Part shown: positions 3,964 through 61,706 of the stretch, piece after piece
Layout: every line of letters starts with the position of its first letter
Position numbering within the stretch: the first letter of the stretch is position 1
Source: Candidatus Spongiisociaceae bacterium
GTDB lineage: Bacteria; Actinomycetota; Acidimicrobiia; Spongiisociales; Spongiisociaceae
NCBI GenBank assembly: GCA_965262915.1
Contig: OZ253564.1
Location: 672,001 to 736,000, forward strand
DNA length: 64,000 nucleotides
Direction: 5' to 3'
Notes under the pieces: generated by a model
The model's database searches: none
What the model was told of the DNA's origin: nothing
The model's input: the letters and a program-made list of their open reading frames with translations, nothing else
Made by a program: the position numbers and the translations under genes

Positions 3964-4123
3964 ATCAACGTCGCCCAAGCCTACCAGCATCTCGCACATG
4001 CGCGCAGGGGTCAGCTTCCACAGGGATCCTCCCGACTCGGATGTCGTTGCTTTAAACCTGAGTATCGAGGACCCCTGTTCACTCCTGGTGGATTACGACC
4101 CCCTGACACATCCCCCTACTCCC
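3964..4123 (-). mobile_element. 5' fragment of an ISL3 transposase
   Basis: Similar to 38657-38815; continuous with the sequence ending at 7609. Confidence 0.7.
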
Positions 4124-4192
4124 GATCCACTCACCAAGGGACTGTTACGGTGACTGCACCATCACACGCCTCGCGCCTTTGCTGGGAGCCCC

Positions 4193-39642: not shown

Positions 39643-40092
39643 TCACCCGGATACGTCCGACCATCCCTCGTGGCGGGCGATCATCTCCCGGAGGTAGGCG
39701 GGTACGGCCTTGGGCTGCATCGTCTCGTGGTCGACGATCACCTGCACTTGGCGTCCCTCGACCACCGTCTCGCCGCTTTCGGTGGTCAGGTACTCGAAGG
39801 TGATGGAGCTCCGTCCGATCCCCACGACCCGGGCGGTGGTGCTCACCACCTGTCCCATCCGGGCCGACCGCCGGTAGTCGATCTCGGTGCGGGCCAGCAC
39901 CACGTCGTCGCCGTTCGCCACCATGAAGTTCCACGGGCAGCCGACGGCGTCCATGTAGTCGGTGAAGGCGTCGTCCCAGTACACCAGGTAGGTGGGGTTG
40001 TAGACGATGCCCTGGGCGTCGCAGTCGGAGAACCGGAGCCTCCGGCTGTAGATGACCGGTTCGCGGCCGGGTGCGATGCTCGGATCGGTCAT
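39643..40092 (-). CDS. acyl-CoA thioesterase (YbgC/4HBT hot-dog fold)
   Basis: RFSDCDAQGIVYNPTYL, EIDYRRSAR, IGRSS. Confidence 0.9.
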   Translation of the reverse strand: MTDPSIAPGREPVIYSRRLRFSDCDAQGIVYNPTYLVYWDDAFTDYMDAVGCPWNFMVANGDDVVLARTEIDYRRSARMGQVVSTTARVVGIGRSSITFEYLTTESGETVVEGRQVQVIVDHETMQPKAVPAYLREMIARHEGWSDVSG

Positions 40093-40158
40093 GCCGACAC
40101 ACGATAGAGCCTGCGGGGCATCGCCCCGTCCCGGATGATCGCCACCGGATGGACCCGG

Positions 40159-41100
40159 CTAGCCGGGAAGCTCGGGGGCCGGCAGGCGGGTGGGCGGGTC
40201 GTCGTGGCGGGGCAGCTTCACCGGGTTGCCCGCCATCTCGAGGGTCGAACCGTCAGGCAGCCCGACCTCCACCACCATATTGCGGGCCCGCACGCCCGGG
40301 TCCGACACCACCGCGGCGATGTCGTTGATCGGCCCGCACGGTATGCCCGCCGCCTCCAACCGGACCAGCCAGGCTTCGGCGATGTCTCCGGAGAGGGCCG
40401 CCTCGAGTTCGGCGCCCAGAGCCTCGGCGTGTTCGGTGCGGGCCTCGTTGGTGGCGAAGCGGGGGTCGTCCACCAGCTCGGGACGTCCAAGCGTCCCGCA
40501 CAATGCCGAGAACAGGCGGTCGTTCCCGGCGGCGACCACGAGGGGGCGGTCCGCAGCCTGATAGGCGGCGAAGGGCGTGATCGATGGGTGGCGGCTGCCG
40601 AGAGGTCCGGGGACCAGGCCGGTGGCCGAGTAGCGGGCGATGGCATTCTCGAGGATGGCCACCTGGCAGTCCAGCATGGCGATGTCCACCATCTGTCCCA
40701 TCCCGGTCCGTTCCCGCTCGTGCAGGGCGGCCAGGATCCCGACGGCGGCAAACAGGCCGGCCGCGATGTCCCCCACCGACGTGCCCACCCGGGTGGGAAG
40801 CCCCCCGGGATGGCCGGTGAGGCTCATCAGCCCGCCCATGGCCTGCACCACCATGTCGTAGGCGGGACGCTCCGAGTACGGGCCGGTATGGCCGAACCCG
40901 CTCACCGCCGCGTACACCAGCCCCGGCCAGCGGGCATGCAGCGTCTCCCACCCGTAACCCATCCGCTCCATAGCGCCGGGACGGAAGTTCTCCACCAGCA
41001 CGTCGGCCCCGTCGAGCAGCTCCTCGAACCTGACCCGGTCCTCCGGGTGGTCGAGGTCCAGCGCCACGGACGTCTTGCCCCGGTTCAAAGACTCGAAGTT
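40159..41100 (-). pseudogene. CaiB/BaiF CoA-transferase lacking its N-terminus
   Basis: LNRGK, DVLVENFRPG, YDMVVQAMGG; compare full copy 49936-51048. Confidence 0.85.
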
Positions 41101-41548
41101 CACCTTCTCCGATGGGAAGCGTTTCCTGATCGGAACGGACGACCCGGAAGGCCTGACCCGCGGCTTTCCTCTGAGTCGGTGCCGGAGCGGGTCGGCACCG
41201 GTCGGCCAGCCGCGGCTGGGTATGCGTGGTCCGTTGCTCTAACGAATCCAGCTTCAGGCGGAACCCGGTCGCCCCTTCGATGGTGATGACAACGCCGAGC
41301 GACTCGAGCTCCACCAGGGATTCTCGACGAGCGTCTTGACGAGCGTCTTGAGTTGCGAGGGCCGTATCGGCCTCGGATTTGACTCGTTCGCCGTGTGCGC
41401 GGCGTTCAACCGGACGTACCTTTGGGTTGCCGCCACCGCCTCCCCGAGCAAATTCCCGATCCTCCACATACCCGTGTACGAGTAGATGAGGCAGGGGGCC
41501 AGCTCCGCCAGGCACCGTCAATACGTTGTCGCTCCTGTAAGGCTTCAA
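41101..41548 (-). pseudogene. N-terminal fragment of an IetS-like S8 protease
   Basis: LPHLLV...R.AHGE...GVVITIEG..GF.LKLDSLE; directly follows the AAA C-terminus. Confidence 0.5.
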
Positions 41549-43372: not shown

Positions 43373-43994
43373 GTGTTCTTTGCCTTGGGCTCGTTTGCGC
43401 AGGTAGCAGGCGCGGGCGTCGGGGTCGTGTTGGCTGGCGACGAACGCGGCGACGAACATGGCGTTGCCGACGCGGTGGTTGCCGCCTCGTGCCCGTCGGG
43501 TGTTGCTGGTGCGGCCCGATTGCCAGTTGACGGGGGCTAGTCCGGCGTAGGCGGCTAGGCGTGCGGGGTTGGCGAAACGGTGCGGGTCGCCGATCTCAGC
43601 GAGGGTTCTCGCTCCGGTGCGGGGCCCGAACCCGCACATGCTGTTGAGGACTTTTCCCAGCGGATGCTCCAAGAACGCCGCCCCGATGTCGGCTTCGAGC
43701 CGCTCGCGGCGGTCGATGATCCGGTCCAAGTCGGCAGCGAGATCGCTGATAGTTTCGCCCCATGTCGCTTCGGCCACCACCGTGACGGTCTGGGCGGCTA
43801 GAGCGGCCCAGATCTCGTCGGTGAGCTTTGCGGCTGTCCGCTTGGAACGTTTCGCCACCAGCGTCCGGACGCGGGCTTTGCCAGCGGCGCGCAGCGCCGA
43901 AGGTGTGGGCCACCTCCCCAGTGCTGCTCGCAGCCCGGACACCGACACCAGCCTGTCGCCTACGGCACGTTCCAGAGCCGGGGACACGGCTAAG

Positions 43995-45810
43995 CCTGAA
44001 TCCACCGACGGCCTCCCCGGGGGGTGGTCCGGGGTGCGGTTGGTGGGAGGTTGAGGGGTCGGGGTTGGTTGGTTTTGGGGGGGTTCTAGGGGCGTGGTGG
44101 GTATGGTTTAGTGGCTAGATGGTGTTGAAAGCTGGTTGGGGTTGTTTCAGGCGTGTATGGCTGGGGTTTAGGTGGTTGGTTATGGTTGTGGGGGGTGTGT
44201 GAGGCCGGGTTAGCAGAGCTGTGGCAGCGTCCGGAGGTTAGTGAGGGTGGTTAGGTAGGTGCCGGCCCAGGGCCATCGGGCGGGTAGACGCAGCAGGCGG
44301 CGTCCGCCGTGGTTGACGACCCGTCCAGGGACCCCGAACAGTCGGGTACGGATGGTACGTCCACAGACCAGCCGCCCTCTTGGGCGGGTTCCGCCCAAGA
44401 GGGCTATATGGCGGTAGAGGTTATGCGCCAGGGCGGCGCAGATCAGCCAGGCCGCGTTAGCTGCGAAGACGCCGGAAGGTAGGTGGGCGAGTCCCCCTGA
44501 GTCTTTGAGGTCGCGGATGGCGAGTTCGCATGTGGCGTGGCGGCGGTGGTACCGGTCGGCTTCGACCGCGGGCACCTGGCTGTGCGCCTCCCCAGGGTTG
44601 TCACCGATCTCTACCGCCGACAGTTCGGCCACTTCGGTGTCTTGTTCGCCTCGGCGGGGTTGGTGACCGGTGTCGTCTTGTACGGCCCGGGGTTGGTGGT
44701 GCCGGTCGGCTTCTGCCGCGGCTAGGTCCAGGTTGGTGACCAAGGTGTGGTACCGCCAGTCGGGGAACAGCTGGGCTTGGGAACCGACCAAGCGGGTGCG
44801 GCGCACCACGAGACGGACCCGGCGCCGCTGCGACCGTTTCTTGGGGTTGGTCATCTCCAGGACGGTTTCCCCCACTTGTGCTTCGCCGCCCCGGGGATAG
44901 ACGATGGGAGCCCAGGCGTCTTCGTCGATATGTGTGATCTGTGCCCTGACCTTGGCATTCACCTGGGTGGTGATCGACCATCCCACCCCGAGTTTGTCGA
45001 GGGCGGCCAACATGGCATAGGACCAGAACCCCGAATCGGCCCGCACGCTCACCGGGCCCCTGGCCCCGGCCCGTCGCACACGCCGGATCGTCTCCCCGAC
45101 GAAATGGACCACACCCCGCTGCGACCCTCCTGCACGCAGACGGGCACCGACCACCTCCCCCGTATCGGCTCGGAACGCCAACAGCGGGTGATAACCCAGC
45201 ACTTTGGTGTAACCGAAAGCCGCGCCTTGTTTGGTCTTGCCCGACACTTCACAGATCGTCGAGTCCAAATCAACGGTCACAGGTCCCTTACCGGGACCCG
45301 CGCCCGCCCGCCACGCCCGGCCCAGCGTCAAGGTCAACACCTTCTCCAACTGGCGTACATGACCCCAGGTGAACGAACGCAGGAAGGTTCCCACAGTGGA
45401 CGGGGCCATCACCGCATGGGGCAACACCCGATCGGTGGAACCCGCCCGGAGCCGACCCACATGATCAATATGGGAGGCGCCCACCAGCATCGCAGCTACC
45501 AACGTGCACACCTTACGACCCGGGTTCGCGCCACCCACCCGGCCCTCCAGCCGCACCGTCCGATCCACCACATCTTCCAACCCCAAACGGTCCATCAGCG
45601 TCCCGGCCGCCAACAGCCCAGCGTCGGCCACCAACGACTCATCATCGAAAACCACCTCATAGCGGTCGATATTCTGCAATACTCCACTCACAGGAAGTGC
45701 CTCCTGACTCCGGGCCAATACACTTGTTTCGTATGGCTATTGTCCCAGATCAGAGGCACTTTCCGCGTCTATCCACCCCCAACCACAGGATATCTACCGG
45801 TGGATTCAGG
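43995..45810 (-). mobile_element. IS1380-family element, copy 2 (transposase 44210-45718)
   Basis: Same IRs as copy 1; CTAAG duplication. Confidence 0.92.
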
Positions 45811-46549
45811 CTAAGAGGGCGTCTCTCAGGCGGTTCGCGGCCCGGGTCGCGTTCCCAGCCAGGTCAGTGTCCCGCCCGTTGAGTATCCGTAGACGGGCCA
45901 GGAGCTCGTCGGTAATAGTGGTCCACGTGAGCCGGTCCGCGTTGCGCCACGCGTAGTCGGCCAGCACCCCGGCGTCTTTGGGGTCGGTCTTGGCCGCTCC
46001 TGCGTAAAGATCCGCGGCTCGGCGCATCGCCAGGCCGGTGACATAAGCCACCGGTATCTGACACTCGGCGGCCACCCCCAAGGCCAGCACAGCCGCAGAC
46101 GAGGTCGTGTCAACCACCAGCGCCGCGCTGCCATGAGATGCTGCGTCGTCGATCAACCGGCGGATAGCCCCCTCGTCGTTGGGAACCGGACGGGCGAACA
46201 AAGCCTCGCCTCGAGCCGACAGCGCACAGGCATAATGTTTCCCCTTGGCGATATCAACACCGACGAACACCTCAGGGGCGGGCTGGGGACAATCTTGCAT
46301 CAGGAGAATCCTTTCCGGTTCGGACGCATGCGACGCTGCCCGCAGGTACCAACGCCTCAACCACTTTACGAACCACCAGCCCCACAATCTCGGTGCATGT
46401 CCCCCTCAGAGGTCGCAGGCACCCAACCACGGCGGGTGGCAACACCCCCCAGGCCATCTCGGTGACAGGGGGACAGAGCCCTGCCCGCCGCGGCGAGCAA
46501 CCAGCCCCGATACTCACACACCAGAGCTACCCAACAAGGTAAAGGGGGA

Positions 46550-46896
46550 GCCCTTCTCCATTGGAGCGTGGCGTTGACGCTGCTCACCAATCACCTCTTC
46601 GAGCCGTGCTCTCGCAGTTCCGCGCCGACCGCCAGGTCTCGCATCGACCTCTCCGAGAACGATGCAACTACAAGACCGCCGAGCTCGCCCCGAGGTTGGG
46701 CAATGGGTGTCACGACAGATCCGGCGAGTTCCTTCCGCCCGGAGTCGACCAACAGCTTCATCTCAGCAGCGAACTTGTGATGTCCCCTACGGGCCGCCTT
46801 GGCCGTAACTTGGAGTACGATCGAGTAAAATGTCTCGTCGTCTCGCGAGCCGTGAGACTTCACAAATGCTTTGATGTGATCAGTTGACGCGGCCAC
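46550..46896 (-). pseudogene. N-terminal fragment of an IetA-like AAA ATPase
   Basis: DHIKAFVKSH..DDETFYSIVLQV.AKAAR.GHH.FA.E...QPRGELGGL. Confidence 0.65.
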
Positions 46897-47322
46897 GAGG
46901 GTCCTCCGTACTTCGACTATAGAGTAAGGGCCATCGCTGACACGCACTCCAATCGGTGTTCGTACGATAGATGCCCTCGTCCTGCTGGAGGCTCTGCTCC
47001 TTGAGAGGATCGGGTTGTGGGAAGGCCAAACAGGTATTCACCGTAGGTCCGCGGAGTATGACAGTGCGCGTGGTGGTCGAGTAGCGAAAGGGGTGCGGTT
47101 CGCAGTGGTTGACCAGTGACCCACCGAATCGGCCTCGGTGGCGGCGCTTTCTCCCTATTCGCGACATTCGCGATTCGCGACCCTCCAATGATCTTGTGGG
47201 ACGGACTGCCGGGTGCCCGGGCGGGATCGCCCGGCCGCACTTGTCGTTCTGACGGAACAACCCTGGGTTAGGAGGCTAGGTCGACCTGACCCGCCGTCCG
47301 CTTACCCGGCCGGTTCGTCGGG

Positions 47323-47760
47323 TCATTCCTCCTGGTTGCCGATCATCTCCCGGAGATAGGTGGGCACTCGTTTGGGGCGCATGGTCTCGTGGTCGACGAT
47401 GACCTGCACCTGGCGTCCCTCCACCAGCGCCTCGCCCGTGTCGGCGTCGGTGGTCAGGTACTCGAAGACGATGGAACTGCGGCCGATCCCCACCACCCGG
47501 GGCACGGTACGGGCCACCTGCCCCATCCGGGCCGAGCGGCGGTAGTCGATCTCGGTCCGGGCCAGCGCCACGTCGTCCCCCTTGCACACCATGTAGTCCC
47601 AGGAACACCCCACGGCGTCCATGTAGTCGGTGAAGGCGTCGTCCCAGTAGACGAGATAGTTGGGGTTGTAGACGATTCCCTGGGTGTCGCAGTCGGAGAA
47701 GCGGATCCTGCGGTCGTAGACGACGGGTTCGGGGGCGGGCGCGGTCATCGGATCGATCAT
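47323..47760 (-). CDS. acyl-CoA thioesterase
   Basis: Paralogue of 39643-40092. Confidence 0.9.
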   Translation of the reverse strand: MIDPMTAPAPEPVVYDRRIRFSDCDTQGIVYNPNYLVYWDDAFTDYMDAVGCSWDYMVCKGDDVALARTEIDYRRSARMGQVARTVPRVVGIGRSSIVFEYLTTDADTGEALVEGRQVQVIVDHETMRPKRVPTYLREMIGNQEE

Positions 47761-47772
47761 GTCAGGAGAATA

Positions 47773-47800
47773 GGTGTCAGGTGTCAGGTGTCAGGTGTCA
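47773..47800 (+). repeat. (GGTGTCA)4 heptamer array; continues at 49288 after the IS110
   Basis: Seen directly. Confidence 0.9.
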
Positions 47801-47801
47801 G

Positions 47802-49286
47802 ACACCCCAGGCGCGTAAATGTCAAGCTGCGGCTCGGTCGATGGTGGTTCGGTGTGCCCAGGCGGTGTGTTCGTTGTAGGGGGTTTGGTGTTTGAGGCAG
47901 CCGTGGAGGATGCCGACGAGTCGGTTGGCTAGGGCTCGGAGTGCTTGGTGGTGGAGGTCGCCGGCTGCTCGTTTCTGGTCGTAGAAGGCTCGGGCTCCTG
48001 GGCTTGGGGTTAGGGAACAGAACGCCCATTGGTCCAGGGCGTCGTAGAGACGCCGCTTTTCGGACGTGGCGGGCCAGGACAGCACGTTTGCGGCCCGACG
48101 CGATGGTGATGGGCGACGTTCCGGCGTAGTTCCTGGGGGACTTGGCGCTGGTGTAACGGTGGGGGTCGTCCCCGAACTCACCGAGCACCCGGGCGCCGAG
48201 CACGGTACCGAGTCCTGGCTGGGAATGGTAGATGACGGCGTCCGGGTGCTGCTCAAAACGGGTCTGGAGGGTTGCTTCGAGTTGGCTGATCTGGCGGTTG
48301 GCCTCCCCAATGATGCTCACCAGTGCCCCCGACAGTCGCTCCGAAGGCGTCCTCAACCGGCCCCGGTGCGGCGAGGTGAGCAGCTCGGAGGCCTTTCTGT
48401 ATTTTGCGGGCGACCGGATCGAGGTTGCGTTTCCGTCCGCCCCTTTTGAGCGCAGCTCGGATCTGGGGCAGTGTCAGGCGGGCGCCAAGGGCGGGGGTGG
48501 GTGCCCGACCCAGTACGGCCACAGCGTCGGAATGGGCCAGGTCCCCGAACGTTTCCAACGCTGCGGGATAGTACTCGCGCAGGGCGTTGCGGACCCCGTT
48601 GGTGTGACGAGTCCGAGCCCAGATCAGGTTCTGATGCGTTCTGGCCACGATCTTGATACCTTCTGATTCGGGGCTGTCACCGGCCACGGGACGGTGGTTG
48701 TGACGGTCGGTGCGTACCAGATCAGCTAACACCTTGGCATCACCGCGGTCTGATTTCGCTCCGCCCAGGCTGTGACGGTCCCGGTAGCGGGACACCGCCC
48801 TAGGGTTGATCGCATACACCACATAGCCCGCCGCGACCAGCGCACCGACCCACAGCCCACGGTCGGTCTCGATGCCTACCACTACCTCAGCTGCATCCGA
48901 TGTGTGCTCGGCGACCATCTGGTGGAACCTGGCTATACCTTGGATCCCTTCCGGTATACGGGCGAACCCCAGCCGGGTTCCCCCCTCGTCCAGCAGATAC
49001 ACATCGTGGTGGCCCTCAGCCCAGTCGTTACCCACAAAAATCATCTTCGCCTCCCTCGTGCGGATCGATCCTTGCCGAGCTGTAGAGGAAACGCCTGGCG
49101 GCGACCTAGCAGATCAGTGCTCTGTGGCACGCCACCCCCTCAGCGCTACAAGCGGCCCTCGCGAACCGGCCGGGGTACGCTCTGACACTAGGAATCAGCG
49201 TTCCGGGTGCCGTCAGTACTCACCGGCCGGCCAGCTCAACCACCACACCCTCCCAGACAAACCGGCAGAAGTGGTGGACCCCCATT
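47802..49286 (-). mobile_element. IS110-family element (third type), frameshifted, inserted in the heptamer array
   Basis: GNDWAE, GIETD, KSDRGDA, ASG; CT core duplicated (AG at 47800 and 49287). Confidence 0.88.
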
Positions 49287-49383
49287 AGGTGTCGACTGGC
49301 GAGACTGAAGGATTCTCGGTGCCGCTTATCTGTGTCGGTCACTCGCCCGTTCCGTTGGTGGCTGCAGAACCCATCATCAAGGA

Positions 49384-49407
49384 CTGACACCTGGCACCTG
49401 GCACCTG
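49384..49407 (+). repeat. CTGRCAC x3
   Basis: Inverted relative to the 47773 array. Confidence 0.85.
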
Positions 49408-49444
49408 TTTCGGGTATCGGTCGTGGGTGTGCGCAGTGCTGTGC

Positions 49445-49809
49445 TTAGCGACTGTTCAATCTTTCGCGTAAGGAGCGCTTGAGCCCGTTGAGCATCTTGC
49501 CGGCTTCGCTTGCTCGTCCTTGGACAGGTCTGATCTGTTTCTCTTCTACGATCCCAAGACGCTGCGCTAGGACAAGATAGGTCTCAGTCTCCGCCAACGA
49601 TCCACTGGCTATGCCGAGGAACTGCAGGTACTCCTTCAGGCTGTGGCGGTTGGCACCCTCCGCAATGTTGGCAGCTACCGATGTCGCCGAACGCCGCATC
49701 TGGCTGGTAATCCCGAACCTCTCCTCCCGCGGGACCGGGCGGAGAGCCGGTATGACATCTCAGCCAACTCGACCGACTTCTGCCATACGTCGAGATCGTG
49801 GTAACTCAT
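49445..49809 (-). pseudogene. four-helix-bundle (23S rRNA IVS-protein-like) gene with two compensating frameshifts
   Basis: MSYHDLDVWQK...P.EERFGITSQMRRSATSVAANIAEG...FL.IA.GSLAETET. Confidence 0.85.
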
Positions 49810-49914
49810 CTATATCCCTTCGGTGCTGGCGATCCCAGGGCCGCACTTACCACAACTCCTGGTGGTATCTTTATATAACAACCGTATACATATGTAAAGA
49901 GCTAACTAAAATAC

Positions 49915-49935
49915 CTGACACCCAGCACCTGGCAC
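49915..49935 (+). repeat. degenerate CTGRCAC x3 abutting the CoA-transferase stop codon
   Basis: CTGACAC CCAGCAC CTGGCAC. Confidence 0.7.
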
Positions 49936-51048
49936 CTAGCGCGGGAGATCGGGAGCCGGTCGGCGGGTGGCGGGGTCGCCGTGAGACGGCAGCTTCACCG
50001 GGTTGCCCGCCATCTCCAGGACCGAGCCGTCCGGTAGCCCCACCCCCACGATCATGTTCCTGGCCCGCACTCCCGGATCGTCCACCACCGCGGCGATGTC
50101 GTTGATCGGCCCGCAAGGTATGCCCGCCTCGACCAGCCGGTCTAGCCAGGCGGCGGCGGTGTCGGTCGAGAGGGCCTCCTCCATCTCGGCGCCCAGCTCC
50201 ACGGCGTGCTCGGTGCGGGCCTCGTTGGTGGCGAACCGGGGATCGCCGGCCAGGTCGGGCCGCCCCAGCGTCTCGCACAGCCCCGTGAACAGGGTGTCGT
50301 TGCCGGCGGCGATCACCAGGGGACGGTCGGAGGCCCGGTAGGCGTCGAAGGGGGTTATCGAAGGGTGGCGGGCGCCCAGCGGGCCCGGAACCAGGCCGGT
50401 GGCCGAGTAGCGGGCGATGGCGTTCTCGAGGATGGCTACCTGGCAGTCGAGCATGGCGATGTCCACCATCTGTCCCAGCCCGGTCCGCTCCCGTTCGTGG
50501 AGAGCCGAGAGGATCCCGACGGCGGCGAACAGGCCGGCGGCGATGTCCCCCACCGAGGTGCCGACCCTCGTGGGAGGGCCCCCCGGATGGCCGGTCAGGC
50601 TCATCAGCCCGCCCATGGCCTGCACCACCATGTCGTAGGCGGGACGTTCGGAATAGGGGCCGGTCCGGCCGAACCCGCTCACCGCCGCGTACACCAGCCT
50701 CGGCCAGCGGGCGTGCAGGACCTCCCATCCGTAGCCCATCCGGTCGAGGGTTCCGGGGCGGAAGTTCTCCACCAGCACGTCGGCCCCGTCGAGGAGCTGC
50801 TCGAACTCCTTGCGGTCATCCGGGACCCCCAGGTCGAGCGCCGTGGCCGACTTGCCCCGGTTGAGCGACTCGAAGTACACGCTGCGACCCCCGTAGAAGG
50901 GCCCGAACCCCCGCGCGTCGTCCCCCCGACCGGGACGCTCCACCTTGATCACCCGCGCCCCGAGGTCGGAGAGCACCATGGTGGCGTACGGACCGGCCAG
51001 CACCCGGCTCAGGTCAACGATCGTTATGTCGGAGAGGGGCCCGTCCAT
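49936..51048 (-). CDS. CaiB/BaiF family III CoA-transferase
   Basis: PLSDITIVDLSRVLAGP, LGARVIKVE, NRGK. Confidence 0.93.
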   Translation of the reverse strand: MDGPLSDITIVDLSRVLAGPYATMVLSDLGARVIKVERPGRGDDARGFGPFYGGRSVYFESLNRGKSATALDLGVPDDRKEFEQLLDGADVLVENFRPGTLDRMGYGWEVLHARWPRLVYAAVSGFGRTGPYSERPAYDMVVQAMGGLMSLTGHPGGPPTRVGTSVGDIAAGLFAAVGILSALHERERTGLGQMVDIAMLDCQVAILENAIARYSATGLVPGPLGARHPSITPFDAYRASDRPLVIAAGNDTLFTGLCETLGRPDLAGDPRFATNEARTEHAVELGAEMEEALSTDTAAAWLDRLVEAGIPCGPINDIAAVVDDPGVRARNMIVGVGLPDGSVLEMAGNPVKLPSHGDPATRRPAPDLPR

Positions 51049-51405
51049 CCCCGGTGACGGTAGCGGGCGGCCGGGCGCGAATGGCCGATGGCGGGGATCG
51101 GCGGCCACGTTCCACCGGGCGGTTCCGGGCGCGAGCACAGACGGGGGCGACGCCCAGGGAGCCTTCGACCGCGGCGACCCGCTCCGCGAAGGCCCCCGAC
51201 CCCCAGCCACCTCCTCGATGTGGCGGTCGTGGGCGGTCGACCCGGAGGCGTTCCCGGAAGTGTCGGCACCCCGCGGCCCGGCGCCAGGCGCCGGTTGATC
51301 TCCCCACCCGCGATACGTATATATATATAGGTCTCAGGTGTCAGTGGTGGCTGGTGGGTCTGAGGGGTTCTCGGTGTCTTTGAGTTGTGTCGTCACTTGC
51401 CGGTC

Positions 51406-51433
51406 CTGGCCCCTGGCACCTGGCACCTGGCAC
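51406..51433 (+). repeat. CTGGCAC x4
   Basis: Seen directly; inverted GGTCTCAGGTGTCAG at ~51330. Confidence 0.85.
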
Positions 51434-51438
51434 TCGAT

Positions 51439-51996
51439 CTACCTGCCGGTAGTCACCGACCGCGGGCGGCTGGATGTGGCTTCTATGTAGCCCTCGACTC
51501 TGGAGACGCGTTCTTTGAAGCCGGCTACCTGGTCGCCGACCTCTCTGATGTTGCGGTCGTGGGTGGCGGCGTTGGTGTCGATCTTGTCGCCGATTTCCTT
51601 GAAGTCCTCCCGTGTATCACCGCGGAAGGTCTCGAATCGCTCGCGGTCCCCGGCCGCGGCGGCGGCGATGGTGTCGATCTTGGTCGTGTTGAGTGCGATG
51701 TTGCCGTTGGTCTCGGCGGCGTTGACGGCGATGGCGGTGGTGTTGGCGGCGATGGCAGCGGTGTTGGCGTCGAAGCGGTCCAGTACTTCGGTGCGGAAGT
51801 CCTTTACTTCGGTGCGGAAGTCTTTGAGTTCTTTGCGGTCGTCCTCGCGGTCCTTCCCTACTTGGTTGCTGAATTTCTCGATTGACTCGTCGAGGGTGCG
51901 CCGGAGATTGGCCTGGAGCCGCAGAGCGAGTCCCACGAAGGTGACCAGCATCACCAGCATGGGGATGAGCGCTTCCAGCATCTGGGTGGTGTTCAT
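51439..51996 (-). CDS. N-terminal TM plus coiled-coil protein, copy 1
   Basis: Hydrophobic N-terminus; I-x-x-N-T heptads; ERVSRVEG C-terminus. Confidence 0.8.
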   Translation of the reverse strand: MNTTQMLEALIPMLVMLVTFVGLALRLQANLRRTLDESIEKFSNQVGKDREDDRKELKDFRTEVKDFRTEVLDRFDANTAAIAANTTAIAVNAAETNGNIALNTTKIDTIAAAAAGDRERFETFRGDTREDFKEIGDKIDTNAATHDRNIREVGDQVAGFKERVSRVEGYIEATSSRPRSVTTGR

Positions 51997-52274
51997 GTGT
52001 CCGGACCTTACCTTTCGCCGATGTTGCCCCGGAAGGGGCTGGCCTCGTGTCGCTTCGGGGATGGTTGCCGCGGTGCGGCCAGTACCGATGCCCGGCGGTC
52101 GGAAACCCCGCAGGCATGGCAGTGGTAGGTGGCGTATGTTCGTAGTTGGTAATCTACTACATAGTTGGATGGTCGAGAAGGGGGTTACGAGTTATTCGGT
52201 GGTGTGTCGCAGCACGGGCTCTTGACGGCCTCCTGGTTAGAGGTACCGATAATCTGGTGCCCTCCCGGTCGCCA

Positions 52275-52435
52275 CTGGCACCTGGCACCTGGCACCTGGC
52301 ACCTGGCACCTGGCCACTGGCACCTGGCCTCTGGCACCTGGCCTCTGGCACCTGGCCTCTGGCACCTGGCCTCTGGCACCTGGCCTCTGGCACCTGGCCT
52401 CTGGCACCTGGCACCTGGCACCTGGCACCTGGCAC
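52275..52435 (+). repeat. 23-unit heptamer array with a 14-mer superstructure (CTGGCAC-CTGGCCT)
   Basis: Counted by hand. Confidence 0.95.
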
Positions 52436-52446
52436 TCCGGTCCGAT

Positions 52447-53160
52447 CTACCTGCCGGTGGTCACCGGCTGCGGGCGGCGGCTGGATGTGGCTTCTATGTA
52501 GCCCTCGACTCTGGAGACGCGTTCTTTGAAGCCGGCTACCTGGTCTCCGACCTCTCTGATGTTGCGGTCGTGGGTGGCGGCGTTGGTGCCGATCTTGTCG
52601 CCGAGTTCCTTGAAGTCCTCCCGTGTATCACCGCGGAAGGTCTCGAATCGCTCGCGGTCCCCGGCCGCGGCGGCGGCGATGGCGTCGATCTTGGCGTTGG
52701 TCTCGGCGGCGATGGCGTCGATCTTGGCGTTGGTCTTGGCGGCGTTGGCGTCGATCTTGGTCGTGTTGAGTGCGATGTTGCCGTTGGTCTCGGCGGCGTT
52801 GACGGCGATGGCGGTGGTGTTGGCGGCGATGGCCGCGGTGTTGGCGTCGATCTTGCGGTTGGTGGTCTCGAAGCGGTCCAATACCTCGGTGCGGAAGGCT
52901 TGGAGCTCTCTGCGGTCCTCCTCGCGGTTGGCCTGTGCTTCGGTGAGGTCTTTGTCGCGGTTGGCGCTTACTTCGGTGCGGAAGGCTTGGAGTTCTTCGC
53001 GGTCCTTCTCGCGGCCCTTCCGTACTTCGGTGCGGAATTTGTCGATTGACTCGTCGCCGCTGCGCCTGAGATTGGTCTGGAACCGCAGAGCCAGTCCCAC
53101 GAAGGCGGCCAGCATCACCAGCATGGGGATGAGCACTTCCAGCACCTGGGTGGTGTTCAT
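52447..53160 (-). CDS. N-terminal TM plus coiled-coil protein, copy 2 (repeat-expanded)
   Basis: Paralogue of 51439-51996 with extra modules. Confidence 0.8.
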   Translation of the reverse strand: MNTTQVLEVLIPMLVMLAAFVGLALRFQTNLRRSGDESIDKFRTEVRKGREKDREELQAFRTEVSANRDKDLTEAQANREEDRRELQAFRTEVLDRFETTNRKIDANTAAIAANTTAIAVNAAETNGNIALNTTKIDANAAKTNAKIDAIAAETNAKIDAIAAAAAGDRERFETFRGDTREDFKELGDKIGTNAATHDRNIREVGDQVAGFKERVSRVEGYIEATSSRRPQPVTTGR

Positions 53161-53233
53161 GTGTCCGGACCTTACCTTTCGCCGATGTTGCCCCGGAAAG
53201 GGCCATCCTCGTGTCGCTTCGGGGATGGTTGCG

Positions 53234-53282
53234 CCGGCACCTGGCACCTGGCACCTGGCACCTGGCACCTGGCACCTGGCAC
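53234..53282 (+). repeat. CTGGCAC x~7
   Basis: Seen directly. Confidence 0.95.
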
Positions 53283-54742
53283 CCCCGTGTACCGGCGTTC
53301 CCCGCTCTTGTGGGGTGGTCGTGGGGTCGGGTCGTTCCGTGCGAGGCGCAGGCAGCCGTTCGCCGGACTCGAGCGCGCATGGGGGTTGTTCCTGTCACGG
53401 TCGTGTTGCACTATGTATATACCAAGCACCCGGGCGGTGTCGGACCGACGTCATTCGACTGCCCGAGGGATCACGAATTCTCGGTGCCGGACGGCCCCCA
53501 TCGGGCGGGCAGGACGCGCCCCGAGGCCCGGATGGGTGGTGGTGGGGGAGGGCCCGATGCAGGGGTGGGGGGTGGCGTTTTTCGCGATCTGGGGGTGTGA
53601 TCGGGGGGATGGGCGGGCAGGGGGGTCTCTGTCGCCTTTTCTTTCGTTGCGGGGCGGATCATGTCGGTGTATTCGTGGGGATCGTTAGGAACTCGGGAAC
53701 CTTTGGTTACGAACGCGGGAACTATTACAGGGGCTGTTTCTCCGGGTTCGGCGCCTGTCGAGTACGCGCTGAGGAAAATATCTGGCACGCGTTGAGCCGT
53801 GGAAGGGAGCCGGGTGCTGCTTGTGGCCGGAGTTCGGGATGAGATTCTCGGGGGAGTTCGTCGTCGGGGGTTTGCCGACCGGGGGGTGTGAGTTGCCGGT
53901 GCTGGCGGGCTACACGTCTATGTGTCTGCGTTCTTGTTCTTCGGTCGGGCAGGTGGACCGGATCGGCCTATCGGGCGGGCGGGTAACCGGCCATGTGATG
54001 GAACCGTGTCGTATATGGGCATGGCCGATCTGTCGGGGCGACCGTGGAACGTATAGTTGGTGATCCGGCGATGGCGGGGCGTGAGCCTGGCGGTGGCGGG
54101 GCGGGCGGTGCGGCGCCGGCGGATCCGGTCCCGAGGGTGGGTTCTGGAGAACGCAGCGGTGTCCGGTTCTGCTGTCGGGTTTGGGCAAAACGTTACGTGA
54201 CCAGGGGATTCGGCGTATCGGTCCGGGTGCTATCGCTCCCTCGCCGGTCGGGATCCGGTCGGGGTGGCCGGTGGTCGAGGATGTGATCGGTGGCCGGCGC
54301 CAGGTGGGAGCGGCGGCCGGTCGGGCTGCATGGGTCGCCGCCGGGCAACCGCCGGCGACCGTACTCTGGGGGCCGCGAAAAAAGGCTTAGACCAGGGAAC
54401 AGCGGAGTTCGCGAAGAACCGCGTACGCACGATTCGGGAAGTGCCATGTCCCGCGGGTTCCGCGCGGTTCGGGCGATCCTCCGGAACCGTCGATCGGCAC
54501 CGTAGATATCTGCGGGTCGGCATTTTCAAGGGGCCAAGTAGCTTGCGTTCGCGGGTTGGCATCGGTACCGTTAGACCCACATGGCTGATCAGGCCCGCAG
54601 CGAAGTTGCGTTGAGCGACGCTTCACATAACATGCGCGTGGGTGGGCGGCGTGTTATATTGGATGGCTAGCCGAGAAATTGGGTTGTAACCGATCCTTCT
54701 CGGCGGCCGACTAAGCCATATGAAAGAAGGAAGGGAGGGCAA

Positions 54743-57130
54743 ATGCCCCTGATAGCGAGGCAGCGTTCGCGGCTGGCTGTGCTGGCCGTGCTGGCCTTGG
54801 TGGGTTCACTTCTTGCCGTTTCTGCGGTGCCAGTCGCCGCTGAGGACGGGAAGGCGGACAACGAGGCCGTATATTCAGCATGTGCCGGTGCTGCGATGGC
54901 CGATGCCGGATTCACCGATATGGACGGCAGCTTTGCCGAGGCTGCAGCGAATTGCTTGGCCCACTACGGCATCACGACGGGAACCAGCGAGGGTGTATTC
55001 TCGCCGACTGATTCGATCACCCGGTTGCAGATGGCTCTGTTCCTGAGCCGGGCTGCTGGCCCGGCGGGGATCGAGTTGCTGGATCCCGCAAAGGATCAGG
55101 GCTTCGACGACATCGCCGGTTTGGCCGACTTCATTCAGGACGCCATCAACCAGGTGGCCGAGTTGGAGATCATGACGGGGACCGATGGTTCGTTCTCGCC
55201 CATGGCTGACGTGAACCGCGAGGACATGGCGACGTTCTTGGACGCATTCCTTGCCAATGCGATCTTGGGCCCGGGTGCAATCGGCGGTGGCATCAACGAC
55301 GATAAGTACTCAGGGGACAACGCGGACGTTGAGCCCGATGACAAGCAGTTCACCGACATCGATCGGGTACCGAGGGTGGCGTACGAAGCAATCCGCCGCC
55401 TCTATGAGGTTGGCGTGGCGCAGGGTACGACCGATACGACCTTCGGCCCGAGTGAGTTGGTGAACCGTGGGCAGATGGCAGTGTTCATCTCCCGGATGCT
55501 GGCTCACACCAATGCCCGTCCGGCCGGTCTGACTATCCAGGCCGAGGGCGATGCGACCGCGGACTCGGACAGCACCATCGCGGTCCATGTGTCTCTGCGC
55601 GGTGACGATCATCAGCCGGTGGCCGATGCGATCATTGATGCCTTCCGTACCTCCGCTCCGGCAGATGCGTTCAACGACGACGGTACCTGTGACGTGTCTT
55701 CCGACGGTGTCGCGCACGAAGGAGGCACGGACACGTGTCAGATTGACGCGAGCGACGAGATCACCGATCCGGACGGAAACCTGATCATTGATCCGCCAGG
55801 GACCTCCGCCGGTGCCGTGACGCTGTGGGTGTGGACCGGCAAGAGCGGCGACACCTACGACGATGACGAGACCACCAAGGCAACGATCGAACTCTCGTAC
55901 ACCAAGCCTGCCAGCATGGTCAGGGTGACCGACACCATGGACAAGCACGCCGTGGCCTTGAAGTTCGGCGATTCGATTACCTTCACCTTCCAAGTGGTTA
56001 ACGAGGACGGTAACGCGGTAACCGAGAAGGATGTCGCGATCAATGTCGTTTCCATGGAGCGGGCCGCGTCGCCTACGGCCGACACCACCGCGATGGCAAG
56101 GTTGGACATCGCCGACGGCAGCACCGGCTATGTGGCCCCGTTCCGTAGTCTCAACACGGAATACATGACGAACGCGGACGGTCAGGTGGAGGTCACCTTC
56201 GGCATTGATGACCTCCGTCCCATGTCGGGTGACGGAGGTGATCTCGGTCGGCTCGATCTGGATGTGACTCTCGACGCCAGCTCGACGTTGACGCTGAGTG
56301 ACATGACGGAACGCAAGGTCATCGACGACGGCGACGGCGACGTCGCTACCGACCCGGTGATCGAGTGGCGGGATACGCCGTCGGCGCCTACAAGCTTGGC
56401 GCTCGGCCTTCCGCAGAGCTATCACTTGGTGTCTACTGCAGGTAGCGGGGCGAGTAGCTCGGTTACGGCCACCCTCGTCAACCAGTACGGCGATCCGATC
56501 TCACGCGCCAAGGTGCGTTTCTACTCGGATGCCACTGAAACGGTAGGTAGTCCCCCTGTTTCATTGAATACATTGGCGGGAATGGCTGACGGATCAACGG
56601 GTCCGAAGCCTCGTAGCACCAACCGCAACGGTGTGGCCACCCAGTCGTACAGTCGAAGTGCGGCCGGCGTTGATGTAGAGACCATCAACGCTCAGTACGT
56701 CCAGGGTCCTTGCAACGATGAGGATTCCGACTGTCCCGATGGTCTCGCCACGGGTGTGACCGATGTAGCGGATATATCCGCCATGGCGGTTATGCATTAC
56801 TGGGGTGTATCGGCGCCGGCGGGTACACCGACTAACGCTCTGCCCATCGTGGTGAGGGATACCGATAGCAACACCATCGTGTTGTCGAATGGGACAAATA
56901 TCTACATCGTCAGCTACAAGTCGATCGATGCCTTCGAGGTGGTTAACACGGGCACAGCGACGGGCGTCTTGGCTACCGGCACTAGGACCATGGACACGTT
57001 CGTGAGCACTCTCAACGCTCTCAGCACTGCTCAGCTAGCTGAAAGCAGTACCACGTTGAATGTCACGCTGTCGGGCAGTCGCAAGGTACCGGGCAGGTTC
57101 GTCTTGGCCTTCAATATTGACGACACATAA
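54743..57130 (+). CDS. SLH-domain surface/S-layer protein 1
   Basis: GGAGG RBS; signal peptide; SLH-like repeats (FTD...GIT.GT...FSP...ITR.QMA.F); acidic beta-rich C-terminus. Confidence 0.88.
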   Translation: MPLIARQRSRLAVLAVLALVGSLLAVSAVPVAAEDGKADNEAVYSACAGAAMADAGFTDMDGSFAEAAANCLAHYGITTGTSEGVFSPTDSITRLQMALFLSRAAGPAGIELLDPAKDQGFDDIAGLADFIQDAINQVAELEIMTGTDGSFSPMADVNREDMATFLDAFLANAILGPGAIGGGINDDKYSGDNADVEPDDKQFTDIDRVPRVAYEAIRRLYEVGVAQGTTDTTFGPSELVNRGQMAVFISRMLAHTNARPAGLTIQAEGDATADSDSTIAVHVSLRGDDHQPVADAIIDAFRTSAPADAFNDDGTCDVSSDGVAHEGGTDTCQIDASDEITDPDGNLIIDPPGTSAGAVTLWVWTGKSGDTYDDDETTKATIELSYTKPASMVRVTDTMDKHAVALKFGDSITFTFQVVNEDGNAVTEKDVAINVVSMERAASPTADTTAMARLDIADGSTGYVAPFRSLNTEYMTNADGQVEVTFGIDDLRPMSGDGGDLGRLDLDVTLDASSTLTLSDMTERKVIDDGDGDVATDPVIEWRDTPSAPTSLALGLPQSYHLVSTAGSGASSSVTATLVNQYGDPISRAKVRFYSDATETVGSPPVSLNTLAGMADGSTGPKPRSTNRNGVATQSYSRSAAGVDVETINAQYVQGPCNDEDSDCPDGLATGVTDVADISAMAVMHYWGVSAPAGTPTNALPIVVRDTDSNTIVLSNGTNIYIVSYKSIDAFEVVNTGTATGVLATGTRTMDTFVSTLNALSTAQLAESSTTLNVTLSGSRKVPGRFVLAFNIDDT

Positions 57131-57187
57131 CTTGGACTCTGGAGGGCGGGAGTCGCCGTAAGGCACTTGACGCCCGCCAGAACTAGG

Positions 57188-57220
57188 AGGAGGGTCCCGG
57201 TTAGATACCGGGACCCTCCT
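57188..57220 (+). terminator. perfect 14-bp hairpin after S-layer gene 1
   Basis: AGGAGGGTCCCGGT-TAGAT-ACCGGGACCCTCCT; no U-tract. Confidence 0.65.
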
Positions 57221-57305
57221 CGCGTCTGGGGTGGTTGCGCCCAAACTGCCGCTGGTTGGGGCGGTTTGGCCACTAGACTCGGGGATGGATGAAAGGAGAG
57301 ATCTG

Positions 57306-59339
57306 ATGTCGCGGCGTTCATCGTTGATCGTGTTGGCTGTGTTGTCCTTGGTGGCCACGCTCCTGGCCGTCTCCGCGGTGCCGGCCGCTGGGGAGGACTA
57401 TCCGGCGACCTACTCGGCCTGTGTGGGCCCGGCCACCGAATCGGCCGGGTTCGAGGACGTACCGGAGGGGAGCGTTTCGGAGGCGGCGATCAACTGCATG
57501 GCGCACTACGGGATCATGCCTGGCGCTTCCGCCAATACTTTCTCACCGACGTTGGGTGTTACCCGCCAGGCGATGGCCCTGTTCCTCATCCGATCGGCGG
57601 GCCCGGCCGGCATCGACATCCCGAAAGCCAGGGACGAGGGATTCAGGGACATCGACGATCTTCCCCGCTCGGTCCGTGACGCCATCAACCAGTTGGTCGC
57701 GCTCGATATCACCAGGGGCACGACGTCCAAGACCTTCTCCCCCGATGATTTGGTGACCCGTCGCCAGATGGTCCAGTTCCTGGCCCGGTTTCTCGATGAG
57801 GCGCCGGTCGGGGAGGGCGGTGTGGATATCGAAGATGTGGACCCCGACGACGACCAGTTCGTCGATATCGACGACCTTCCCCACGGTCCTTACGACGCCA
57901 TCCGCAACCTGTTCGAGATGGGCGTTACCAACGGCACCTCACGAACCAGGTTCTCTCCCGACCGTACGGTGACCAGGGCCCAGATGGCCATGTTCATCTC
58001 CCGGATGCTGGCCCACACCAACGCCCGCCCGGCCGGGGTCACCATGCAGGCGCCCGACACGTCGGTGGCCGCCGGCGACACCGCCGAGGTGGTGATATCG
58101 GTGCGGAACTCCGACTTCGAAGCCGCGCAGGACGTGTTCGTGGATCTATTCCATGCTCCGTCCCGGCGTGTGGCCTTCGACTCCGGCGGACGGTGCTACG
58201 ACGACGTGACCGCCGCAGCCGGAGACCAGCCCTGCGTCATCGACTTTAGCGACACGACCACGGACAGTCTCGGCAACCTGGTCTACGATGTACTCGTCGA
58301 CGCGAGCCTGGTGTTGTGGGTGTGGACCGGGGATCGCAACGACCGGTTTGACGCCGACAGGACCCAGGCCGCGACGTTGGAGTTCAGCGCCGGCAAGGCC
58401 CCCGATAAGTTCAAGATCACCTACGACATACCCGAGGAGGCCATCAAGGTCCCCTTCGGGAGGTCGGTCACCGTCACCTTCCAGTTGGTGGACGAGGACG
58501 ACAACCCGGCGAGCGAGCGGGGCGCGGAGATACGAGTCCGCAGCATCGAGAAGAACGGGGGTAGGGTGGATCGTGACCGCAGCAGGACGCTTACCACCGA
58601 CTCGTCGGGCCAGGCGCAGCTACGCTTCCGCCAGACCGATCCGGACTCGCGCGACGGTGATCCCGACGCCACTCTCGACCTCACCGTGGAGAGAGCCGAC
58701 TACGATTGGGATCCGACGCCGAGGGTGCAGTGGTCCGATGAGGACGAAGAGGCCAGAACCCTGGTCGCCGAGCAATCAGTCGCCTATCACTACGCGTCAA
58801 ACGCGGGCCAGGGCGTCTATCACACGGTGACCGCCACCCTGTACGATCAGTACGGTGATCCGGTGCGATCACGGCAGAAGGTGTCCTTCAAGTCCAACGA
58901 TCCGGCCGGGTTGAGTTCCACGGGCCAGGGCGACGCCCAGAGTGTCTACCGCAAGTCGGTCAGCAGCCGGGGCGTAGCCAGAGTCGGCTACTGGCGTAGA
59001 TCGACCGACACTCTCAGGGAGATCATCGAAATCAGCATGCTGGTGGGCAGTCGCCTGATACAGGTCATTCCCCCCGTCGAGCACTACTGGGTCGGAGACC
59101 CCCGCGTCGGCGAGCCGACAAGGGGTCTGGTGTTGCATCACGACGAGGACCGGAACACGTTGGTCTTCGGTGCCGACGACGACCCCTACGTGATCACCTA
59201 CCACTCGAGCGACCAGTTCATCGGGCCGGACGGCAACGAGGTCTTCTCCACGTTCGCAAAGGAGATCGGTGTGGGTGACAATCTGACGGTTACAGTTGAC
59301 GGCTCGCGTGGGGCCCCCAACCGCTTAGTCCGGGGTTGA
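57306..59339 (+). CDS. SLH-domain surface protein 2
   Basis: AAGGAG RBS; same architecture; MLAHTNARPAG linker. Confidence 0.88.
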   Translation: MSRRSSLIVLAVLSLVATLLAVSAVPAAGEDYPATYSACVGPATESAGFEDVPEGSVSEAAINCMAHYGIMPGASANTFSPTLGVTRQAMALFLIRSAGPAGIDIPKARDEGFRDIDDLPRSVRDAINQLVALDITRGTTSKTFSPDDLVTRRQMVQFLARFLDEAPVGEGGVDIEDVDPDDDQFVDIDDLPHGPYDAIRNLFEMGVTNGTSRTRFSPDRTVTRAQMAMFISRMLAHTNARPAGVTMQAPDTSVAAGDTAEVVISVRNSDFEAAQDVFVDLFHAPSRRVAFDSGGRCYDDVTAAAGDQPCVIDFSDTTTDSLGNLVYDVLVDASLVLWVWTGDRNDRFDADRTQAATLEFSAGKAPDKFKITYDIPEEAIKVPFGRSVTVTFQLVDEDDNPASERGAEIRVRSIEKNGGRVDRDRSRTLTTDSSGQAQLRFRQTDPDSRDGDPDATLDLTVERADYDWDPTPRVQWSDEDEEARTLVAEQSVAYHYASNAGQGVYHTVTATLYDQYGDPVRSRQKVSFKSNDPAGLSSTGQGDAQSVYRKSVSSRGVARVGYWRRSTDTLREIIEISMLVGSRLIQVIPPVEHYWVGDPRVGEPTRGLVLHHDEDRNTLVFGADDDPYVITYHSSDQFIGPDGNEVFSTFAKEIGVGDNLTVTVDGSRGAPNRLVRG

Positions 59340-61441: not shown

Positions 61442-61706
61442 CTCACGATTCTGTTACGAGTTATAGAAGAGGAGAGGGCATCGATGACATCGGGGGGGTG
61501 TCGGCACTTTCGGATCTCGCTTCGTCCGATACCCCCCGACCACTGCTCTCGTCGTTTCCCACCTGTGATATCGACGGCTGATTCGTAACGGCGTTCGGTA
61601 CGCTCCGAAAGCCTCTCGAATCCGGCCACCGGCTACCTGGCCGTTTGGATATGCCGTGTTTGTCACCGTGTGGGGCTTACTATGTCCCCCAGGCAAGCAA
61701 ACAGAA

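Follow-up and report, generated by a model that had tools for sequence, protein, structure and literature searches.

A 64,000-nucleotide stretch of the genome of a Candidatus Spongiisociaceae bacterium (GCA_965262915.1, contig OZ253564.1, positions 672,001 to 736,000; hereafter the window) carries two copies of an operon that pairs a CoA-transferase gene with a thioesterase gene. In one copy, a four-helix-bundle (4HB) gene of family PF05635, bracketed by arrays of a tandem heptamer (GTGYCAG, or CTGRCAC on the opposite strand), lies between the two genes, which raises the question of what this insert is and how an operon could accommodate it. Our reading, which we put at a probability of about 0.6, is that the 4HB gene is the cargo of a cassette of the intervening sequence (IVS) type, set in the stop/start junction of CoA-transferase and thioesterase and probably tolerated at the RNA level through an RNase III stem.

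We scanned the window for CTGRCACCTGRCAC, allowing up to one mismatch, and compared the result with 100 shuffles. All 23 matches fell within 47774-53282; the chance expectation was 0.15, and 0/100 shuffles got to 23. Tandem Repeats Finder (TRF) reported six heptamer arrays of 2 to 23 units each, and the motif scan and TRF together recovered all six CTGRCAC arrays at the positions given in a preliminary description of the window. Its statement that these arrays occur only here was correct for the window but not for the genome (5.05 Mb, 64% G+C, one contig), where we counted, after extension and merging, 74 arrays (4133 bp) at 55 loci. The features that make up the two operon copies and the bracket are as follows.

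39643..40092, minus strand: thioesterase of operon copy 2, the copy with the empty site (Pfam 4HBT_2, E 5.6e-20).
40093..40158: CoA-transferase/thioesterase junction of 66 bp, the empty paralogous site (coordinates from the open reading frames (ORFs); 0 heptamer matches).
40159..41103, minus strand: CoA-transferase of copy 2 (Pfam CoA_transf_3, E 7.5e-104, profile positions 55-362), its N-terminal part in a different frame.
47323..47760, minus strand: thioesterase of operon copy 1 (Pfam 4HBT_2, E 3.7e-17).
47774..47801, minus strand: downstream (inverted) arm, sense (CTGACAC)4 (TRF 47772-47801, 4.3 copies).
49445..49810, minus strand: 4HB gene, PF05635 / TIGR02436 (Pfam and NCBIfam profiles).
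49811..49914, minus strand: leader of the 4HB gene, its distal half (~49860-49914) AT-rich (read from the sequence).
49915..49940, minus strand: upstream arm, sense TAG GTGCCAG GTGCTGG GTGTCAG (read from the sequence; TRF 49913-49940).
49936..51048, minus strand: CoA-transferase family III, copy 1 (Pfam CoA_transf_3, E 4.4e-128), its start placed by likeness to an ORF of a congener, G007.

The 66-bp spacing that had been described for copy 2 (39643-40092, then from 40159) was confirmed, with no heptamer between the genes. In copy 1 the 4HB gene lies between the enzymes, again as described. Repeats run from the CoA-transferase stop, whose TAG (49936-49938) is overlapped by the three-unit upstream arm, to 13 nt before the thioesterase ATG, where the inverted arm doubles as the left half of the target of an IS110 insertion. 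The 4HB gene scored 80.2 bits against PF05635 (cut-off 33.8, E 1.5e-22) and 84.3 bits against TIGR02436 (cut-off 24, E 6.4e-24).

This arrangement was not peculiar to the window. The genome contains two PF05635 genes, and both are bracketed by heptamer arrays. The second sits between a His_Phos_1 gene and secG; its upstream arm reads, after the stop, TGGCCAG GTGTCAG GTGTCAG GTGCTAG (TTGCTAG)3, followed by an AT-rich leader and the 4HB gene, and its downstream arm consists of CTAGCAA/CTACAAA/CTACCAA-type units reaching the secG start. Labeling this genome G000 and its congeners G001-G007, we found the same secG slot in G002 and G007, with arms TTGGTAG/TTGCTAG and (CTACCAA)3; in G001 and G003-G006 the synteny differs, and there is therefore no clean empty allele there.

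To see the bracket beyond the genus, we took a census of 80 homologous loci from many phyla, counting arrays up to 260 nt upstream and up to 160 nt downstream of it. A period-7 array lay within this range at 72/80 4HB loci, and on both sides at 53/80. Array density was 4.16 per kb near the 4HB gene vs 0.24 per kb in the remainder of these loci, a 17-fold difference. Upstream and downstream units were reverse complements within 1 mismatch at 49 of the 53 two-sided loci (31 of them exact), and a direct-repeat arrangement fitted only 1/53. The repeat-delimited cassette of the preliminary description was thus supported for the 4HB gene, but not for the coiled-coil genes, the IS110 element or the so-called 3' module of the same region. 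In the literature searched, whose coverage is thin for subscription journals, we found no general description of a link between PF05635 and heptamers.

The simplest alternative is that the arrays are ordinary simple-sequence repeats (SSRs), generated by slippage in free intergenic DNA, and that their adjacency to 4HB genes is coincidental. Intergenic heptameric SSRs are described, in the portions of PMC4692102 and PMC4679880 available to us, as cyanobacterial short tandemly repeated repetitive (STRR) sequences, Xanthomonas GGGAATC, Nostoc GGGGAYT and Beggiatoaceae TAACTGA, and those of Xanthomonas, Nostoc and Beggiatoaceae lie near or over stop codons. Like them, as far as those portions go, the arrays here are lineage-specific intergenic 7-nt tandems near or over stops and just before starts, some in inverted pairs. 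TRF returned 342 period-7 rows for the genome, period 7 is over-represented among its non-triplet periods, and in being tandem, intergenic and over-represented the arrays answer to the description of heptameric long SSRs. However, slippage does not lead one to expect a 17-fold higher density beside 4HB genes, matched inverted units in 49/53 arm pairs or the bracketing of both 4HB genes of the genome, and slippage alone leaves one shared unit at 55 loci, and another in each sister species, unexplained. We therefore regard this explanation as highly improbable. The arrays here differ from the described SSRs in that their unit forms the arms of a resident 4HB cassette; the available portions of PMC4692102 and PMC4679880 make no link to PF05635, and the terms '23S', 'four helix' and 'intervening' do not occur in that of PMC4679880.

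PF05635 is a large orphan protein family, and to our knowledge lineage-specific heptanucleotide repeats (STRR and others) have gone unexplained since 1990. The bracket now ties the two together physically and statistically, and the cassette layout may help to account for the enigmatic 7-base repeats seen in bacterial genomes. What the genus contributes is a single operon junction in filled, empty and differently filled form, with orthologous arrays written in species-specific units.

Comparing filled and empty alleles among relatives, we found that G001, G002 and G007 each have a single thioesterase orthologue and that the four other congeners have none. The junction is empty in G001, where CoA-transferase and thioesterase stand ~57 bp apart with no array, like window copy 2. 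In G002 it holds a 4HB gene: an array of (GGTGAAT)-type units encloses the CoA-transferase stop, and after it come the 4HB gene, which is frameshifted, and inverted units; the G002 thioesterase is 5 kb off and in opposite orientation, such that the CoA-transferase-4HB pair is inverted relative to it. In G007 it holds other cargo, a 545-aa SLFN_AlbA_2/HATPase_c_4 gene; one side is bounded by (TGTGGCT)n, an array that again contains the CoA-transferase stop, and the other by (GCCACAA)n, which lies 14 nt short of the thioesterase ATG. The filled alleles, unlike the empty ones, have CCTATTCTCC in common ahead of the ATG (by eye). Because the junction is filled, empty or differently filled in these congeners, an array-bounded presence/absence and cargo polymorphism exists, which is what the preliminary description had proposed to look for. 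As a separate observation, the G007 cargo gene is flanked by ~170-bp direct repeats inside the heptamer arms (L126 ~1850-2010, 4010-4170; by eye).

These alleles bear on a second alternative, in which the arms work at the DNA level and provide portable homology, or hairpin/cruciform sites, for cassette insertion, loss, swap and rearrangement, with host recombination or an unidentified recombinase as the agent and the RNA stem incidental. One slot with different cargo per species, array-bounded each time, and the inverted CoA-transferase-4HB pair of G002 would both fit such a role. So would the 4HB proteins 72-73% identical to this genome's that we found in metagenome-assembled genomes (MAGs) with Entotheonella, Latescibacteria, Arenicellales and Dehalococcoidia in their titles (including L155-L159); several of these loci carry similar CAGTGGY-type arms, and the sequences suggest that the whole cassette moves between phyla. 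In addition, among contigs from four Logan runs, a single contig in each case links two arrays across the IS110 element (47801>49297), across the whole insert (47797>51336) and across the coiled-coil gene CC1 (51433>52123). The sides of these joints are short (~25 nt) and lie inside repeats, and the joints are therefore hints only, which may stem from other loci or organisms. Against DNA-level arms, we saw no recombinase or reverse transcriptase for this role in cassette or genome (PF00078, 0 matches), and the pairs of a related hairpin element, considered below, are strand-specific (93% vs 66%), which indicates RNA rather than DNA. On balance we think this alternative rather unlikely.

Two other known systems were considered for comparison. 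The accessory protein Avd of diversity-generating retroelements (DGRs) has a four-helix-bundle fold and belongs to a family related to PF05635, according to the available portion of PMC10053308; the preliminary description had likewise noted that PF05635 was first seen in 23S rRNA IVSs and resembles Avd. The idea of a DGR was dropped, as the reverse transcriptase profile PF00078 had 0 matches in the genome (96% complete); we also saw no template/variable repeat pair. Integron cassettes differ in that the arms here are tandem heptamers and not attC core motifs (by eye; no integrase search was made).

The closest parallel we found is the helix-45 23S rRNA IVS of Coxiella burnetii, which, in the portion of PMC4990558 available to us, has an S23p (PF05635) ORF and a 28-bp terminal stem. 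Three to four tandem GACAGAT heptamers, whose number varies between strains, precede the ORF; RNase III cleaves at the first repeat, excision is demonstrated by experiment, and the ORF is decaying (PMC4990558). As far as that account goes, ORF-bearing 23S IVSs (Coxiella; also Leptospira) share with our cassette the PF05635 / S23p family and the tandem heptamers just before the ORF. They differ from it in that the element here lies between protein genes of an operon, has longer arms and uses a heptamer found at 55 loci. Our cassette has tandem heptamers directly upstream of the ORF and a reverse-complement repeat downstream; because it is sited between protein genes and not in 23S rRNA (helix 25 or 45), we filed it as a variant and not as a classical IVS.

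In the mechanism that we propose, the cassette would consist of a heptamer run from the upstream stop codon, an AT-rich leader, the PF05635 ORF and a reverse-complement run leading to the next start. Upon transcription of the operon, pairing of the two arms would yield a long stem of the type that, by analogy with the ORF-bearing 23S rRNA IVSs, RNase III could cut, and the insert would thereby be tolerated between genes. The arms themselves, or arrays left by lost cassettes, would persist as polar solo arrays. Later, an IS110 element with heptamer-directed guides landed in the downstream arm, and a gene-less hairpin element (heptamer arms and a 96-nt core) was added beside the 4HB gene. An RNase III gene is present in the genome, and the 23S IVS, the only experimentally studied case, offers a testable mechanism, namely RNase III cutting at the heptamer stem. 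Minimum free energy (MFE) folds contained pairs spanning >300 nt between the arms around the 4HB gene in 5/5 transcripts, and the secG-slot transcript of G002 folded at -207.3 vs -177.0 for its shuffles (sd 6.4). The pairing of upstream and downstream repeats around the cargo, as the preliminary description had envisaged, was thus predicted as long-range MFE pairs, but the complementarity is imperfect and the window cassette itself gave a less favorable picture.

We were concerned by several findings that weigh against the cassette reading. With the IS110 element removed, the window cassette had an MFE of -260.6 vs -256.4 for shuffles (sd 8.2), which is no better. In the upstream arm, perfect complementarity to (CTGACAC)4 is confined to the GTGTCAG units, GTGCCAG giving C.A mismatches, and the inverted arm has its nearest partner in an arm of the hairpin element itself rather than in the one upstream of the 4HB gene. 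RNase III cleavage at the arms is an expectation by analogy. In this assembly the 4HB ORF carries a frameshift, the frame breaking at ~49725-49738 with the N-terminal 24 residues in another frame (three-frame translation), and the G002 4HB gene is frameshifted at least 2 times (by eye). These frameshifts may reflect decay or long-read error; Logan contigs X5 and X6, which cross 49632-49810, show one gap relative to the window. With the frame broken in both genomes, the protein may be dispensable, as argued for Coxiella. Within the genus, the link between arrays and 4HB genes rests on one clade, a point to which we return with the congener samples. Finally, most of the 55 array loci have no nearby 4HB gene, and (CTGGCAC)4, which is present in many phyla (at least 109 stretches), was accompanied by a 4HB gene at 1/109 loci within the fetched DNA (29 of them had 300-nt flanks only). 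With so few 4HB genes at the 55 loci and 1/109 elsewhere, arrays also exist alone, and the 1/109 figure means that the unit itself is no predictor of the gene. We also observed that (GTGCCAG)n arrays of unrelated phyla often adjoin other heptamer arrays (GGTGATC-like, GAAACCT, CATTCCC).

The solo arrays of this genome are polar. Using our own crude gene calls, inside which 457/4133 array bases fell, we found that 30/74 arrays begin ≤12 nt after a same-strand stop as GTGYCAG vs 5/74 for the reverse orientation; beside gene starts (≤20 nt) the bias runs the other way (5 vs 0). A TAG immediately precedes 17/74 arrays. On the sense strand the pattern is therefore stop|(GTGYCAG)n and (CTGRCAC)n|start. 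The idea that arrays hug small genes did not hold genome-wide, nor are they confined to cassettes: the 55 loci mostly flank ordinary genes, and the 85 genes ≤150 nt from an array have a median of 317 aa vs 302 aa for all genes, with 16/85 shorter than 160 aa vs 872/3923 overall. The only recurring families near arrays were the 4HB pair, the coiled-coil pair, the IS110 pair and few others.

Each of G000, G002 and G007 has its own shared unit. Matches to (CTGRCAC)3 numbered 205 in this genome, 4 to 8 in G001, G002 and G007, and 0 in 27 other relatives; (CACCAYT)3 gave 920 matches in G002 and 6 in G007, with a reversed-pattern control also giving 328 in G002; and (GCCACAA)3, with ≤1 mismatch, gave 125 in G007 and 10 in G002. 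The orthologous slots (coiled-coil gene|CoA-transferase, CoA-transferase|4HB, cargo|thioesterase) carry a different unit per species, GTGYCAG in this genome, GGTGAAT in G002 and TGTGGCT in G007. Among the 8 congeners, counting this genome, PF05635 genes are present only in G000, G002 and G007. In evenly spaced 200-kb samples, period-7 arrays covered 683 bp in G000 and 1048 bp in G002 vs 35, 142 and 171 bp in G004, G005 and G006, which have no 4HB gene. The last three have secG genes 96-98% identical and are apparently one clade, and the contrast therefore counts as a single evolutionary event.

A possible, if tentative, interpretation is that the heptamer is a genome-wide 'dialect' tied to the resident 4HB cassette, and that arrays at orthologous junctions are rewritten in each species by an active process. 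Rewriting might proceed by cassette-templated conversion or by co-evolution of protein and repeat, and a guided IS110 might follow the dialect through changes in its guide. If this is true, the lineage-specific heptanucleotide repeats of bacteria would have their basis in the same process.

The same counts bear on a third alternative, that the heptamers are binding sites of the 4HB protein, which would regulate or mark its own cassette, with the solo arrays after stops as its regulon and the genome-specific unit reflecting the specificity of the resident protein. It would account for the dominant units of G000 (CTGRCAC, 205) and G002 (CACCAYT, 920) being the arm units of their CoA-transferase-site 4HB genes, and for the co-occurrence of arrays and 4HB genes in the genus. 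Distant arrays in other phyla also agree with it, 25/68 carrying the arm unit vs 6/68 when matched against a random other locus (shuffled-locus control). However, G000 and G002 both carry a frameshift in the cognate 4HB ORF, and in G007 the dominant GCCACAA has no matching 4HB gene, its sole PF05635 gene having GCTAGTT-type arms. We consider protein binding doubtful as the explanation of the arrays. An RNA stem, DNA-level use of the arms and protein binding may act side by side.

Two further elements lie within the arrays around the 4HB gene, and neither belongs to the cassette that we propose. The first is the IS110 element.

47802..49288, minus strand: IS110-family element with a frameshifted transposase, between heptamer units (Pfam, two frames).

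Its two frames matched DEDD_Tnp_IS110 (E 2.6e-32) and Transposase_20 (E 1.9e-8). IS110-family elements that target repeated extragenic sequences by means of a bridge (guide) RNA are known. There are 11 full-length copies in the genome, 7 of which lie between heptamer units as ...GTGYCAG|IS|GTGYCAG..., and the remaining 4/11 form an 85%-identical subfamily with other guides and other targets. The 5' leader of the window copy (49045-49288) holds bridge-RNA-like guides matching its flanks. In 11/11 copies a leader segment agrees with the left flank (5-7 nt), and two leader segments vary copy by copy with the left and right flanks (both by eye): AGTGTCAG, AGTGCCAG and AGTGCTAG go with flanks GTGTCAG, GTGCCAG and GTGCTAG, respectively, GCTGATAG accompanies flank TGATAG, and the second segment reads GGCACC vs GGCTCC. 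The guides thus mirror three array-unit variants and two other targets. Because leader and flank covary as in bridge-RNA-guided IS110, we removed the element from the cassette model; it is a later insertion guided to the arrays and not part of the cassette. It shares with known IS110 elements the DEDD and Transposase_20 domains and the two leader segments that match target flanks, and it differs in that its target is a heptamer tandem array, which makes every unit boundary a potential site. Guides that track repeat variants in this way show in nature how a guide can be reprogrammed toward a tandem-repeat target. The only Rfam match was to Ms_AS-4 ('Actinobacteria sRNA', 88.6 bits) at 48141-48222 (+), antisense within the transposase gene; this family may do no more than capture a conserved piece of IS110.

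The second is a hairpin element, the '3' module' of the preliminary description, which had placed related copies downstream of two unrelated cargo genes.

49289..49383, plus strand: 96-nt core of hairpin element copy 1, antisense to its neighbors (nhmmer E 8e-23; consensus fold).
49384..49407, plus strand: right arm of the hairpin element, CTGACAC CTGGCAC CTGGCAC (TRF 3.4 copies), 37 nt beyond the 4HB stop.
51331..51433, plus strand: short variant of the hairpin element, with inverted units 51331-51344, core 51345-51405 and (CTGGCAC)4 51406-51433 (TRF 51405-51433, 4.1 copies).

The two window copies are indeed related (74% mean column identity when aligned), but they are not parts of cargo: nhmmer found 15 copies of the core in the genome, 13 of them full-length, all flanked as (GTGTCAG)n-core-(CTGGCAC)n. 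The element is independent, and both window copies are antisense to the window genes; by our reading, most copies lie in sense direction downstream of a gene. The consensus of the 13 full-length copies folds into a hairpin of 35 pairs, with 93.0% of 445 cells paired (129 of them G.U), whereas the complementary strand would pair 65.6%, and 14/15 copies are more stable on the former strand. Covariation is modest, 5 pairs being changed on both sides (reached by 30/500 shuffles), in copies that are close kin and from which the structure itself was derived. In our reading, the module is a gene-less hairpin relative of the cassettes. We found no likeness between its 96-nt core and the inner ends of 4HB cassettes when these were compared by eye, no core in 30 relatives, and no Rfam entry for either the arrays or the core. 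Dispersed hairpins of this general kind include repetitive extragenic palindromic (REP) sequences and bacterial interspersed mosaic elements (BIMEs), as well as miniature inverted-repeat transposable elements (MITEs). The 15-copy element resembles these in being intergenic, hairpin-forming and mostly downstream of genes, and it differs in that its arms are tandem heptamers, that it occurs only in this genome of the 31 searched, and that it has no Rfam match. In one case (2648674-2648893 of this genome, L135), a heptamer array with the 96-nt core abuts the 3' end of tRNA-Leu(CAA).

Upstream of the CoA-transferase on the minus strand, the array region continues through two coiled-coil genes.

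51439..51996, minus strand: CC1, a membrane-anchored coiled-coil protein (no Pfam/NCBIfam family; alignment).
52275..52435, minus strand: 23-unit heptamer array between CC2 and CC1 (TRF).
52447..53160, minus strand: CC2, a coiled-coil protein and tandem paralogue of CC1 (alignment).
53234..53282, minus strand: 7-unit (GTGCCAG) array upstream of CC2 (TRF 53236-53283, 6.9 copies).

The preliminary description had included these genes in the cassette cargo. CC1 and CC2 matched no Pfam or NCBIfam family above cut-off, their Protein Atlas matches were uninformative, and we found no relatives outside the genus, with the exception of one weak match; they are lineage-specific genes in array-marked slots and not a recurrent cargo class. 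All genes of the array region are on the minus strand, and in that direction the order is (GTGCCAG)7, CC2, the 23-unit array, CC1, (GTGCCAG)4 with the short core and two inverted units; then CoA-transferase, three units at its stop, the AT-rich leader and the 4HB gene; and finally three units with the 96-nt core, IS110, (CTGACAC)4, 13 nt and the thioesterase.

Frameshifts occur in the CoA-transferase of copy 2 (40159-41548), the IS110 transposase (48253-48356) and the 4HB gene (49725-49738), and may be homopolymer errors of a one-contig MAG rather than signs of pseudogenes. Contigs from all four Logan runs omit one base at 48326, for which other IS110 copies may be the source. The space between the two CoA-transferase-thioesterase copies (41859-47260) is full of transposase genes, including an IS110-type one with an HTH domain and a second IS110-type one split by a DDE_Tnp_1 element. 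Beyond the arrays, 54743-63785 encodes a tandem set of four paralogous surface proteins (700-795 aa), which carry SLH and Big_1 domains.

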